Source: Minisyncoccia bacterium
GTDB taxonomy: Bacteria > Patescibacteriota > Minisyncoccia > Phycocordibacterales > XYD1-FULL-46-19
Length of the DNA: 47,544 nucleotides
NCBI GenBank assembly: GCA_041601795.1
Contig: JBFIHK010000002.1
Location: forward strand, 1 to 47,544
Direction: 5' to 3'
The position numbers were made by a program, and so were the translations under genes. Positions 852 to 14,519 of the stretch are shown piece after piece; the stretch's first letter is position 1; each line of letters opens with the position of its first letter. Below the pieces are notes generated by a model that was not told the origin of the DNA, did no database searches, and saw nothing but the letters and a program-made list of their open reading frames with translations.

Positions 852-1078
852 GTGCAGGATTCTCGAGCTACACTCGCTATGGTACCCCGCCATGCGTGCA
901 TGGCGGGGTCTTTCTAATTCGTGCAGGATTCTTTCATTACACAAACAGTATACCTTTGCGATTTTCTCTCGGCCAAGCCGCTCGAAAATAACGCAAAGCT
1001 TTTCGAATCCTGACATAACCCAAGCAGTTGGCTTATTCACGGGTCACATATAAATACTTTTCAGTATTTATAATTTTG
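852..1078 (-). repeat. tRNA-Lys-linked trailing element, two stacked modules (proximal 921-1078, distal 852-920)
   Basis: Sense remnants gtgcaggattc at 852-862 and 921-931 equal tRNA gene 1085-1095. Antisense box ttcgaatcctg at 1002-1012 is the reverse complement of 1088-1098. CTGC-loop hairpin at 1015-1036. Perfect 11-bp GC hairpin at 885-908. Confidence 0.7.
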
Positions 1079-5968: not shown

Positions 5969-6043
5969 TGGTGCTCTCACCAAGAGTCGAACTTGGATTA
6001 CGGGTTCCGCAAACCCGCGTTCTATCCATTGAACTATGAGAGC
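5969..6043 (-). tRNA. tRNA-Arg (anticodon GCG), CCA encoded
   Basis: Reverse complement GCTCTCA-TA-GTTCAATGGATAGAAC-G-CGGGT-TTGCGGA-ACCCG-TAAT-CCAAG-TTCGACT-CTTGG-TGAGAGC-A-CCA. Confidence 0.85.
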
Positions 6044-8451: not shown

Positions 8452-8621
8452 AGGGAGGGATTCGGTCACAAATAATTCTCTTGCCGTCGCTCGAGAATTT
8501 CCGCGACCCCGGCTCGGCTATTCACACTGCTGTGTTAATTATGCCTGCGCCTTTCGAATCCCTCACGCGACTGAAGCAGTTCAGTCGCTCCTCTCCTTGT
8601 CAAAATTTTCAATTTTGCCTG
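8452..8621 (-). repeat. tRNA-Ser-linked trailing element
   Basis: Sense remnant 8452-8464 equals tRNA gene 8627-8639 (13 nt). Antisense box 8553-8564 ttcgaatccctc. 9-bp hairpin with CTGC loop at 8567-8588. Confidence 0.7.
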
Positions 8622-8708
8622 CGGAGAGGGAGGGATTCGAACCCTCGGTGCCCTTGCGGACACTCCGGTTTTCAAGACCGGTGCGATCAACCACTCTGCC
8701 ACCTCTCC
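8622..8708 (-). tRNA. tRNA-Ser (anticodon UGA), class II
   Basis: Reverse complement GGAGAGG-TG-GCAGAGTGGTTGATCGC-A-CCGGT-CTTGAAA-ACCGG-(long variable arm)-GAGGGTTCGAATCCCTC-CCTCTCC-G. Confidence 0.9.
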
Positions 8709-10381: not shown

Positions 10382-10543
10382 CAAAGAAAAAAGACGCTAT
10401 CAAGCGTTTTTTTTATTTGTGTTTCGGAGAAACTAAACTGCTTTAGTTTCGTGAGGTAATCGAAAAGGTTCTTCCTTACCGTCTCGCCGAATAGAGCGAG
10501 ACGGTGGAAAACCTGTACTGTTCCTGTAAGGAAAGATTCCCTC
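10382..10543 (+). repeat. tRNA-Arg(UCU)-linked trailing element
   Basis: 9-bp hairpin with CTGC loop at 10429-10450. Antisense box gaggtaatcgaa at 10453-10464 (11/12 to the complement of the tRNA T-arm). Nested hairpin at 10479-10504. Sense remnant gattccctc at 10535-10543. Confidence 0.7.
10386..10414 (+). terminator. Intrinsic terminator directly after tRNA-Arg(UCU)
   Basis: aaaaaagacgct-atca-agcgtttttttt. Confidence 0.55.
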
Positions 10544-10678
10544 TTGGTATTCTAAAACAAAACGTAAGTTTTGGCTGATTATATTTTAGTAGCCCCGGGA
10601 AGGAATCGAATTAGTAAGAAAATTTTATTTAAAACGTTATACAGTATAGTAAATAATTATTACTTAACTATCTTGTAC

Positions 10679-11245: not shown

Positions 11246-11369
11246 TTAATTGTAAAGAAAGCTTCAGCTTAATATTTTTTAACAGATATTTAATAACAAA
11301 ATCTTTTCTAGTCCCTTAGTGTGTTGCTACAAAATCAACAGCCCCGAAGCTTTTACTGAAACATAAAAA

Positions 11370-11645
11370 CTGAGGGACTCTCGAGCTACACTCACTGGTA
11401 CTTTTCGATTAAATATTCTTAATCAGATATTTAATAACGAAAAGTCTTTCGAGATACCCGTACTTTTTTTGGGACTCGGTCACAACTCTTCTGTTTCGAT
11501 AAATCTACACAACGAAGGTCGCGACCCCGTCTCAGCGACAAGTACTCACTTGGTTCGTCTTGTATACCGCTTCCGACCTTCGAGTCCCTCAGCGCCTACA
11601 AAACAAAAATATTCTAAAGCAATACTTTAGAATCTAATGTTTTTG
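11370..11645 (-). repeat. tRNA-Val-linked trailing elements, stacked modules (proximal 11471-11645, distal 11370-11470; older decayed copy likely 11246-11369)
   Basis: 17-nt antisense box at 11579-11595 is the exact reverse complement of tRNA gene 11649-11665. Sense remnants gggactcg at 11471-11478 and ctgagggactc at 11370-11380. Confidence 0.75.
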
Positions 11646-13161: not shown

Positions 13162-13304
13162 CAATTGAACAAAGTTTAAAATTGTACGCGAGAGGCGCAT
13201 CTGTTTTTTATAAAATAAAAAACAGGAGCAGGACTTGAAAAGACCCCGCCCTTCTAGAAGGGCGGGGTTGATGTGAGTTGACCCCAAGCCCCCTCGTTAC
13301 GCAC
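13162..13304 (+). repeat. tRNA-Leu-linked trailing element
   Basis: Antisense pieces cgcgagag(g) at 13187-13195 and aggacttgaa at 13230-13239, separated by an AT hairpin. GC hairpin at 13244-13267. TTGACCCC end. Decayed sense remnant aagccccctcgttacgcac at 13286-13304. Confidence 0.65.
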
Positions 13305-13379
13305 CCTTTACTTTTATTTTTAATATGATATAATAAAAATAGTTAGATTCATAAAATACTACCAGAGGAGAATACAGTC

Positions 13380-13586
13380 ATGGCTCGACAGTTTTTCCAA
13401 GTATTTTTTTATGATGAATTAGGACGTTGTTTGTGCCAATGTCCTAAAGTGTGGGGTCTTAATTTAGACCATGCCATTAGGCGTGTTCGAGACAAAAGAC
13501 CAGACCTTGAGGAAACTTATGTTTACGGCAAGAGATTACCCAAAAAATCTCGCACCCAAATGATGGGTGGCAGAGAGATTCATTGA
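13380..13586 (+). CDS. Small hypothetical protein (68 aa, Cys-containing)
   Basis: Strong RBS ggaggag 7 nt upstream of the ATG. A strong terminator follows. No recognisable family. Confidence 0.55.
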   Translation: MARQFFQVFFYDELGRCLCQCPKVWGLNLDHAIRRVRDKRPDLEETYVYGKRLPKKSRTQMMGGREIH

Positions 13587-13600
13587 TAAGTGGATCTCGC

Positions 13601-13634
13601 ACGGGCCCGACTTTTAGTCGGTGCCCGTTTTTTC
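13601..13634 (+). terminator. Intrinsic terminator
   Basis: acgggcccgac-tttta-gtcgg(t)gcccgt followed by tttttt. Confidence 0.8.
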
Positions 13635-14235: not shown

Positions 14236-14308
14236 GGTGCCTATGGTGTAACGGTTAACACTGAGGTTTGTGGAACCTTCGATTCGGGTTCGATTCCCGA
14301 TAGGCACC
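14236..14308 (+). tRNA. tRNA-His (anticodon GUG) with encoded G-1
   Basis: G(-1)-GTGCCTA...GAGGT-TTGTGGA-ACCTT...CGGGTTCGATTCCCG-TAGGCAC-C. G-1 pairs with C73. Confidence 0.9.
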
Positions 14309-14519
14309 CAAAAATAATAAGTTTAAACTGAAAGTTTGAACGATTGTATTTTTGGTGTTGATCTATCCGGAATCGAAAGACGGAGGCGGTACACAAGACG
14401 AGGAGAAAAACGACGAGTGCTTGTCGCCGAGTCCGGGGAGGAAGCACTTAGTGAACGAAGACCGGAGGGATGAGTGAACTTAGTGACTTGACCCCGATTC
14501 CCGATAGGCACCCAAAAAT
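14309..14519 (+). repeat. tRNA-His-linked trailing element bounded by a perfect 24-nt direct repeat of the tRNA 3' end
   Basis: gattcccgataggcacccaaaaat at 14292-14315 and again at 14496-14519. Antisense box ccggaatcgaa at 14367-14377 (10/11). Confidence 0.8.

Follow-up and report, generated by a model that had tools for sequence, protein, structure and literature searches.

The regions directly behind most of the tRNA genes in the window analysed here, a stretch of 47,544 nucleotides from a Minisyncoccia bacterium (assembly GCA_041601795.1, contig JBFIHK010000002.1), hold small structured units of a common build, the unit behind tRNA-His(GTG) being the one that was first flagged. The typical unit carries an arm complementary to the 3' end of its own tRNA gene, a folded core and, behind the core, a direct copy of that 3' end, and the cores are mosaics of blocks shared between units at different tRNAs. 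Close relatives differ in whether a given gene carries a unit and in which core is found there, the end of one protein gene was imported together with its element, and the arm spans the junction at the left edge of the duplicated segment. On balance we lean towards reading the units as non-autonomous insertion cassettes that carry the address of their target and whose blocks recombine; exchange of blocks, taken by itself, is highly probable. The nearest printed relatives are the tRNA-linked repeats (TLRs) of Escherichia coli, and the elements described here are TLR-like.

The window is contig C2 of a genome (G000) of 563,632 bases in 34 contigs that is scored 98% complete. It was compared with a genome of the same genus (G001), about 80% identical in flanking genes and syntenic around tRNA-His, where 80% identity extends across 731 bases of the upstream gene and the tRNA. 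G001 is scored 94% complete with 4% contamination, so some of its tRNAs may be foreign; the comparison took in part of its 39 tRNA matches, at loci that could be paired by tRNA. Contigs of related strains, matched at 85% likeness or more, came from four other metagenomes (runs X2, X4, X5 and X7). All downstream regions were read in the orientation of their tRNA.

Anatomy of the units

ARAGORN places seven tRNA genes within the first 14.3 kb of the window, and six of them are followed by the common build, with every module on the strand of its tRNA; the exception is tRNA-Arg(GCG). Genome-wide, 21 of the 38 tRNAs carry at least a recognisable 5' core block, and core matches lie near tRNAs except on contig C9 and on C27, a continuation of C10. 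The units measure about 130-210 bp and most are without an open reading frame (ORF). Each begins with a short AT-rich spacer, often containing a terminator-like hairpin. There follow an antisense arm complementary to the acceptor 3' strand, T-stem 3' strand and T-loop of the unit's own tRNA, the letters (G)AAA, a GC-rich core of 46-118 nt, and a sense arm that copies the tRNA directly, beginning at T-loop base G57. The first-pass annotation had marked 14367-14496 at tRNA-His; this span covers the core but not the whole unit, whose parts are as follows.

14237..14309, plus strand: tRNA-His(GTG), host of the flagged element (ARAGORN; Rfam tRNA model, 61.2 bits)
14310-14519: whole His unit (RNA fold z -4.8)
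14310..14353, plus strand: spacer with a small hairpin, conserved with G001 (59/68 identity over spacer and antisense arm)
14354..14377, plus strand: antisense arm ggtgttgatctatccggaatcgaa, complementary to T-loop, T-stem 3' and acceptor 3' strands, with one mismatch in the 12 positions of the anti-T part
14378..14495, plus strand: core, with a 5' block of class a (GACGGAG...GAGTCCGGG) and a 3' tail of class 7 (GTGACTTGACCCC)
14496..14519, plus strand: sense arm, a 24-nt direct repeat running from T-loop G57 through CCA and six flank bases, without mismatch

The arm can be told from a sense copy by its T-loop letters. It reads AATCGAA for the T-loop TTCGATT in His and Arg, ACTTGAA for TTCAAGT in Leu, and ACTCGAA for TTCGAGT in Val, which shows that it is antisense and not a sense copy of the tRNA 5' strands. 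In the Lys, Ser and Arg units a hairpin (9-bp stem, CTGC loop) separates the acceptor part of the arm from its T-stem part, and across the genome the distance from anti-acceptor to anti-T part is exactly 25 nt in 13 elements. This 25-nt hairpin covaries: among 23 distinct sequences, 197 of 207 pair cells are Watson-Crick and four are G-T. Helices so nearly pure fit a role at the level of DNA, or of two strands, at least as well as a role in RNA, and do not decide between them.

The remaining units of the window are listed below, with cores named by their 5' class (letter) and 3' class (number).

13184..13306, plus strand: Leu(GAG) element (RNA fold z -7.1); antisense arm with an AT-rich hairpin at 13184-13239, core e7 at 13240-13285, decayed sense arm at 13286-13306
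11474..11601, minus strand: Val(TAC) proximal element; antisense arm without hairpin at 11601-11579, core a2 at 11578-11481, 7-nt sense arm at 11480-11474
11369..11473, minus strand: Val distal module; core c4, then sense arm gagtccctcagt (11380-11369); 94.7% identical over 76 nt to the Asn element
11271-11314: third, C-like remnant at Val
10421..10544, plus strand: Arg(TCT) element (RNA fold z -4.6); antisense arm with CTGC hairpin at 10421-10464, core b3 at 10465-10534, sense arm at 10535-10544
10560..10611, plus strand: second, core-less Arg(TCT) module; antisense arm fitted to Arg(TCT), spacer 86.5% identical to that of the Arg(CCT) element on contig C4
8450..8596, minus strand: Ser(TGA) element (RNA fold z -5.9); antisense arm with CTGC hairpin at 8596-8553, core a2 at 8552-8464, sense arm at 8463-8450
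921..1047, minus strand: Lys(TTT) proximal element; antisense arm with CTGC hairpin at 1047-1002, core b3 at 1001-932, sense arm at 931-921; 97.9% identical over 145 nt to the Lys(CTT) element on contig C10
851..920, minus strand: Lys distal module; core e4 at 920-862, sense arm at 861-851

Two modules are thus stacked at Lys and at Val. The sense arms measure 24 nt at His, 14 at Ser, 11 at Lys, 10 at Arg, and 7 and 12 at Val, that of Leu being decayed, and these lengths vary more than in the E. coli TLRs. Judged against shuffles, the units are far more stable both as RNA and as DNA; the RNA fold z lies between -4.4 and -7.1 for five of six units and is -1.4 for Val-proximal. A second terminator follows several elements. 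Overlapping frames of at least 60 amino acids at the window units give no supportable genes, and no integrase gene or fragment was found inside the units. Only tRNA reached the Rfam gathering score in the window, and the elements matched nothing in Rfam at E up to 1 or 10, the RtT, ribozyme and intron families included. A match to sX4 stays below threshold (43 bits, cut-off 70) and lies on tRNA-Ser itself.

The sole element-free tRNA of the window, tRNA-Arg(GCG) at 5969-6043, has an encoded CCA. By raw count, a classified element stands at two of eight tRNAs with encoded CCA (His and Leu-tag) versus 19 of 30 others; Ala-tgc, also with encoded CCA, has a core remnant.

Shared blocks in different combinations

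It had been proposed from the letters alone that interior blocks are shuffled between the elements, starting from a resemblance between His 14373-14401 and the reverse complement of Val 11555-11583. The match indeed holds at 25 of 29 positions, and no other place in the 47.5 kb, on either strand, reaches 22 of 29 to the His block. The similarity continues in a gapped alignment through GAGT(G/A)CTTGTCGC(C/T)GAG..GGG. The other blocks named at that stage could be recovered as well: GCCGAGCCGGGGTCGCG of Ser against GCTGAGACGGGGTCGCG of Val (15/17), the 3' tail TACTGTT..TGTAA.GAAA of Arg and Lys-proximal (16/19), and the CTGC hairpin common to Ser, Arg and Lys. The block GTGA(C/G)TTGACCCC of His and Leu is present (12/13) but marginal when set against shuffles (z 2.6, its score being reached by 8 of 200).

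For the shuffle comparison, eight module interiors were freed of their tRNA-derived arms and aligned in 28 pairs, with 200 dinucleotide-preserving shuffles per pair. Five of the 28 pairs were matched by at most one of 200 shuffles, placing the block similarities beyond the shuffled range: Lys-distal with Val-distal (z 9.3), Val-proximal with His (7.2), Lys-distal with Leu (7.2), Ser with Val-proximal (4.9) and Lys-proximal with Arg (4.7). The similarity is therefore not due to chance. One might take the blocks for fortuitous matches between GC-rich stretches, and the marginal 13-nt block of His and Leu is what such an explanation would have in its favour; it is refuted by the uniqueness of the 25/29 match, by the shuffles and by the identity between loci, other copies in the same genome being 95-98% identical over 82-145 nt, and can be regarded as extremely improbable.

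The claim that the blocks combine differently at different tRNAs is borne out by pairwise alignments and by the pairings of classes, since the shared segments do not coincide. Lys-distal matches Leu over positions 9-37, a 5' hairpin whose middle differs by compensating changes, and matches the 3' tail of Val-distal over positions 36-58. The 3' tail of Leu matches His, not Lys-distal. In Val-proximal, positions 4-54 match His and positions 43-59 match Ser. When all recognisable modules of G000 and G001 were sorted by signature motifs, five 5' classes and seven 3' classes were found in nine pairings: a with 1, 2 and 7, b with 3, c with 4 and 5, e with 4 and 7, and d with 6. Within classes a, b and c only part of the members have the CTGC hairpin, and it is near-identical in the Ser(TGA) and Lys(CTT) elements (92% over 38 nt) though their cores differ. 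Because the 5' blocks are unrelated sequences, the same tail on two of them requires a replacement event. The mosaic thus supports recombination or cassette exchange among members of the family. Independent origin, which the first-pass annotation had rejected in favour of recombination or a common template, is excluded, while the evidence does not separate the latter two.

Contigs C10 (21184-21354) and C27 (5050-5260) overlap within one stacked Lys(CTT) element, inside which both of them end; the assembly seems to be broken there by the repeats.

Turnover between relatives and targets beyond tRNA genes

The units turn over between relatives. At tRNA-His the spacer and antisense arm are kept in G001, whose core is of type D where that of G000 is a7. 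At Leu-gag, too, spacer and arm are conserved and the core is of another type, and the core type differs between the two genomes also at Phe, Asp, Cys, Gly-tcc and Leu-taa. The Met, Arg-cct, Asn and Ser-tga loci are filled in G000 and empty in G001, Gln-ttg and Ile-tat are filled in G001 only, and Arg-tct alone clearly has the same core type in both. Replacement is seen between closer strains as well. In X2 and X5 contigs, 27 nt of the Leu core between 13240 and 13268 give way to 77 other letters while arm and 3' tail stay. A replaced Arg core in X7 (joint 10467->10549) is a weak case, resting on a single contig of depth 3.8 with a side of 39. Matches to the His unit in X2 and X5 stop at 14377, and others start at 14499; no contig bridges the two, and this was not counted as a replacement. 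Between tRNA-Leu and tRNA-His, contigs of X2 and X4 have 126 other letters in place of 87 nt at 13525-13613; this variable spot comprises the end of a 68-amino-acid ORF (13380-13586) and a terminator-like hairpin.

Comparison of filled and empty sites indicates which gene end is the original one. At tRNA-Met (contig C15) the flank that follows the sense arm aligns to the flank of the empty G001 site at 78 of 96 positions (score 51), and the flank directly behind the G000 tRNA scores 10. The distal repeat is thus the original gene end, and the working 3' end arrived with the insert.

A protein gene gives the same picture. On contig C9 (5150-5650) a type D element lies at the start of a GT4 glycosyltransferase gene whose site is empty in G001. 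The first 17 or so codons have been replaced by a foreign, synonymously different copy, and the native start is stranded behind the core. This displaced copy equals the native G001 sequence at 22 of 22 positions and has the same upstream flank as that sequence, and the in-gene copy shows five synonymous-type differences in 18. It was therefore imported with the element from another lineage and is not a target-site duplication. As to whether the arm fits the native or the imported target better, C9 and a second locus (L046) give opposite answers.

Such imports might suggest that the units are passengers without machinery of their own, spread between strains when the conserved gene beside them undergoes ordinary homologous recombination, as could follow uptake of DNA, with the arm a template-switching by-product of the first copy. 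The C9 gene end fits the transfer of a donor fragment. The Ser element, too, is near-identical between strains with flanks that differ by about 9%: an X2 contig differs from the window at 3 of 194 positions over 8457-8650 (Ser element and tRNA end) and at 14 of 148 in the neighbouring gene. The only candidate enzymes in the genome, moreover, are an Xer protein and one serine recombinase (see below). This explanation nevertheless leaves unaccounted for the near-identical cores with fitted arms at more than 20 different tRNAs and several protein genes, as well as the fixed geometry of arm and junction within a core type, and the right-hand homology would measure only 7-32 nt. We consider it improbable.

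Beyond this genus, 31 loci carry an exact 25-mer of core type D. Their records are titled Patescibacteria, Paceibacterota, Saccharibacteria, Kaiserbacteria and Berkelbacteria, with a further one titled Ectothiorhodospiraceae (L063) that is probably a misbinned piece of Patescibacteria. ARAGORN finds a tRNA no more than 200 nt upstream at 20 type D loci, and the flanks of L070 and L074 read as tRNA 3' ends by eye. Seven type D loci lie at the ends of protein genes identified by Pfam or, for L33, by reading only:

Translational GTPase, first codons: type D, three loci
MurD-like ligase, first codons: type D, two loci
GT4 glycosyltransferase, first codons: type D, one locus
Ribosomal protein L33, last codons: type D, one locus

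At these genes the gene end is duplicated over about 28-32 nt, and a target-complementary arm stands just before the core and spans the left edge of the duplication. By automatic measurement, the arm extends leftwards beyond the duplicated segment by 5-9 nt in 19 of the 31 type D loci and by exactly 7 nt in 12. This left part lies outside the repeat and follows both the T-loop variants GTTCGAT, GTTCGAA, GTTCGAG and GTCCGAT and the unrelated targets in protein genes. The reach to the left of the junction is about 7 nt for type D and 3 nt for types A-C, and the joining point predicted from the arm would fall at T-loop 59/60 for type D and at 56/57 for types A-C. The long type D variants L057, L063 and L068 have insertions in which no recombinase was recognised, the ORF of L063 itself not having been searched. 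In L063 the core, behind a tRNA-Met, stops after its first hairpin; the AT-rich DNA beyond it, with an ORF coding for some 170 amino acids of unknown kind, may be cargo or an unrelated insertion.

A 23-nt pattern from the type B tail (Lys/Arg type) occurs at no fewer than 120 loci. Of 80 that were examined, 33 follow tRNA genes, of 15 different kinds; further sites are behind a recurrent 3' end resembling that of transfer-messenger RNA (tmRNA), behind 5S rRNA or at protein genes, and other loop variants of the arm-splitting hairpin occur. Type-B-tailed units at non-tRNA sites (L080, L087, L104, L119, L121 and L141) have a different conserved hairpin, GAAGTGATGTTATCACTTC, and a loop variant GTCTGGGAGAC occurs behind tRNA and tmRNA-like genes; the hairpin that splits the arm thus comprises several loop families. 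The strict combination of CTGC hairpin and anti-T-loop was found in 8 of 401 genomes of the phylum, against three matches of a reversed control, and is therefore rare and in part due to chance.

A possible mechanism and known systems

We infer that the arm serves as an address for site-specific joining, carried out either by an enzyme acting in trans or by self-catalysis. In the mechanism that we propose, small gene-less cassettes would home in on the final bases of genes that are conserved, for the most part those for tRNAs. An incoming cassette would bring a replacement gene end with its own spacer or terminator, thereby keeping the gene whole, together with a folded core and an internal arm that is complementary to the target on either side of the insertion point. 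The displaced original gene end would remain behind the core as the direct repeat. Once integrated, the arm could pair with the upstream junction and also with the start of the distal repeat, so that the two junctions would be brought together. Co-resident copies would swap cores and hairpins by recombination at shared blocks and at locus-specific arms, which would give rise to the mosaic that is seen. The arm is ordered 5'-[complement of right side][complement of left side]-3' and adjoins the folded core; the internal guide of group I introns has the same order.

Several observations weigh against such cassettes. No mobilising enzyme was found in G000, which has no match to RVT_1, Y1_Tnp, the IS110 DEDD domain or the TnpB TNB domain; its only recombinases are one Xer-type tyrosine and one large serine recombinase, on C5 and C4 respectively. 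No excised or circular form was seen, nor any transcript among 12 runs, none of which was listed as RNA, and the type D and type B patterns had no match in 2.9 million viral contigs. The comparison of filled and empty flanks is decisive at one of five pairs; of the other four (Asn, Arg-cct, Ser-tga and Gln-ttg), three lean weakly the same way (13-14 versus 8-9) and one is a tie. Twelve of the 31 type D loci fall outside the 5-9 nt reach (seven, at -2 to 2) or fail the automatic test (five), the arm of a type B locus (L095) seems to lie left of the junction, and in types A-C no more than three letters of the arm (GAA), within a near-palindrome, fall outside the repeat. The model gives no account of the way in which arms would be re-fitted to new targets, and the high conservation of cores across classes could also mean a function for the host.

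The two recombinases can be characterised further. The tyrosine recombinase scores 241.5 bits with the XerA model (cut-off 220) and 116.5 with the integron-integrase model (cut-off 265). The serine recombinase gene (C4:15190-16932; locus L044:1420-3162) encodes 580 amino acids with a Resolvase domain (61.6 bits) and ends inside tRNA-Glu(ttc) (C4:16894-16966) on the opposite strand, overlapping the last 39 bases of the tRNA. Similar sequence stands behind tRNA-Glu(ttc) in G001. A second copy of the tRNA-Glu 3' end that would bound a serine-recombinase island was not found on contig C4.

Islands and prophages that tyrosine or serine integrases insert into tRNA genes share with the units a rebuilt tRNA, a displaced 3' direct repeat that starts in the T-loop, and stacks formed by serial insertion. 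As in an island, the insert is delimited by a direct repeat, and beyond the distal copy comes the ancestral flank (tRNA-Met and C9). The units differ in being 130-210 bp long without an integrase gene, in their internal target-complementary arm, and in the more than 20 different targets that are served by the same cores. One could suppose that they are the decayed attL/attR scars of integrase-borne islands or prophages that once occupied these tRNA genes. Such islands are classically recognised by a tRNA 3' end that is directly repeated from the T-loop onwards, and the serine recombinase gene overlaps a tRNA gene. The interiors, however, are conserved structured cores, up to 98% identical between loci and with exact 23-25-mers across classes; attachment scars lack a fixed architecture with an antisense arm, and no fragment of an integrase survives inside the units. 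An origin as scars is very unlikely.

The resemblance to the E. coli TLRs is closer. These comprise the 178-bp tyrT repeats (RtT, rttR) and RrA/B/F behind 5S rRNA, and they have the same position and the same 3'-end copy as the units described here. To our knowledge they have been unexplained since 1978. In E. coli K-12, each of the four units at tyrT/tyrV has a 19-nt sense repeat that starts at A58 and is preceded, at a distance of about 100 nt, by an imperfect antisense arm, GGGGAAGGATGAGA, with 12 of 14 positions matching; some 5e-4 such 14-mers with at most two mismatches are expected by chance in a 170-nt unit. Both groups thus have the two-arm build in common, on unrelated sequences. Some TLRs follow 5S rRNA, as type-B-tailed copies do in a Patescibacteria record. 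There is no sequence likeness between the two groups, and neither sequence nor structure homology to RtT was found. The units here, unlike TLRs, are built as mosaics of modules, among them a 25-nt hairpin; they have several core types, one of which also targets protein genes, and they turn over between congeners. According to passages of PMC8144298, E. coli has 22 TLR units at 10 loci, behind tRNA or rRNA genes and ending in an 18-19 bp copy of the gene's 3' end; most have no known function, and processed small RNAs are reported for the three behind 5S rRNA, while mobility goes unmentioned in those passages. The tyrT/tyrV units (NC_000913, 1285800-1288000; L076) share GCGAAGCG near their 3' ends with the type D cores, which may be chance.

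This resemblance raises the question of whether the units serve the host, as trailer RNAs like RtT and RrA/B/F. They would be made by read-through of the terminator, cut by tRNA-processing enzymes because their closing helix copies the acceptor and T stems, and act as small RNAs, with a mosaic produced by gene conversion among paralogous copies. Position, 3'-end identity and the matching antisense and sense arms of the tyrT units are as one would expect, and so are the strong folds, the covarying hairpin, the conservation of core motifs across Patescibacteria classes and the second terminator behind several elements. The three TLRs behind 5S rRNA are reported to be transcribed, processed and bound by Hfq and CsrA (passages of PMC8144298). 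On the other hand, a fixed role is hard to square with presence, absence and type differing at most loci between two congeneric species. The same core is also found, on the opposite strand, at protein-gene 5' ends, to which processing of the tRNA type cannot apply, many sense arms are too short for an acceptor-like helix (7 nt at Val, 10 nt at Arg), and four G-T cells in 207 are few for an RNA helix. A role as trailer RNA is rather unlikely.

Guide-bearing elements recognise their targets in a way that recalls the proposed cassettes. The internal guide sequence (IGS) of group I introns with its P1 and P10 helices, the exon- and intron-binding sites (EBS/IBS) of group II introns, the bridge or seek RNA of IS110/IS1111 and the guide of IS200/IS605 all have the same two-sided complementarity to a target, in a segment that lies inside the element and adjoins a structured core. 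Introns of groups I and II are rejected as an identity for the units: no intron family matches at E up to 1, the host gene is uninterrupted, there is no reverse transcriptase and the cores are 46-118 nt. IS110/IS1111 bridge RNAs were set aside since G000 has no DEDD_Tnp_IS110 match. Integron cassettes show the same head-to-tail stacking of small units, imperfect inverted repeats that can fold as a hairpin, and exchange between arrays. The arms, however, are local copies of the target and not the conserved R''/R' boxes of attC, there is no IntI, and the tyrosine recombinase scores as Xer. REP/RAYT and other IS200/IS605-derived elements fail on the absence of a Y1_Tnp match and on terminal arms that derive from the target and are not constant to the element. 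Miniature inverted-repeat transposable elements (MITEs) of the DDE type fail on a repeat of 7-55 nt and on the synonymous differences between the C9 copies, which were not made in situ. TIGR-Tas systems likewise have short guides flanking a hairpin-like repeat, in CPR (candidate phyla radiation) bacteria, the group studied here, and in phages; as described in passages of PMC12045711, they form arrays of paired 9-nt spacers complementary to opposite DNA strands, beside a Nop-domain gene, whereas the units here are single, the two halves of their arm pair with one strand, and they have neither an array nor a Tas gene. Integron cassettes, REP/RAYT elements, MITEs, IS110, introns and TIGR arrays thus each fail a defining feature. 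A literature search, with most subscription journals outside its coverage, found no description of such elements in Patescibacteria.

A more far-reaching version of the cassette model is possible, if doubtful: the units might form a new class of programmable mobile cassettes free of protein genes, in which the arm is a nucleic-acid address across the joining point, much like an intron guide, the core catalyses joining or recruits a housekeeping enzyme, and a swap of arms retargets the cassette, the E. coli TLRs being relics. If this were so, arm exchange would explain how one core serves dozens of tRNAs, tmRNA, 5S rRNA and protein genes. With the arm as address, the elements would be a very small, naturally retargetable system for DNA insertion across a phylum of tiny genomes, and the E. 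coli repeats would be explained too. The elements already matter in practice, as they fill more than half of the tRNA loci in G000, break assemblies (C10 and C27) and rewrite gene ends with foreign sequence; their turnover between congeners makes them useful strain markers and a source of annotation errors.

Three intact tRNA genes, tRNA-Ile(gat) on C20, tRNA-Ile(tat) on C6 and tRNA-Ser(gga) on C4, are followed after 40-90 nt by partial tRNA 3' halves that start near position 49; without classified cores, these halves are perhaps the scars of other insertions.

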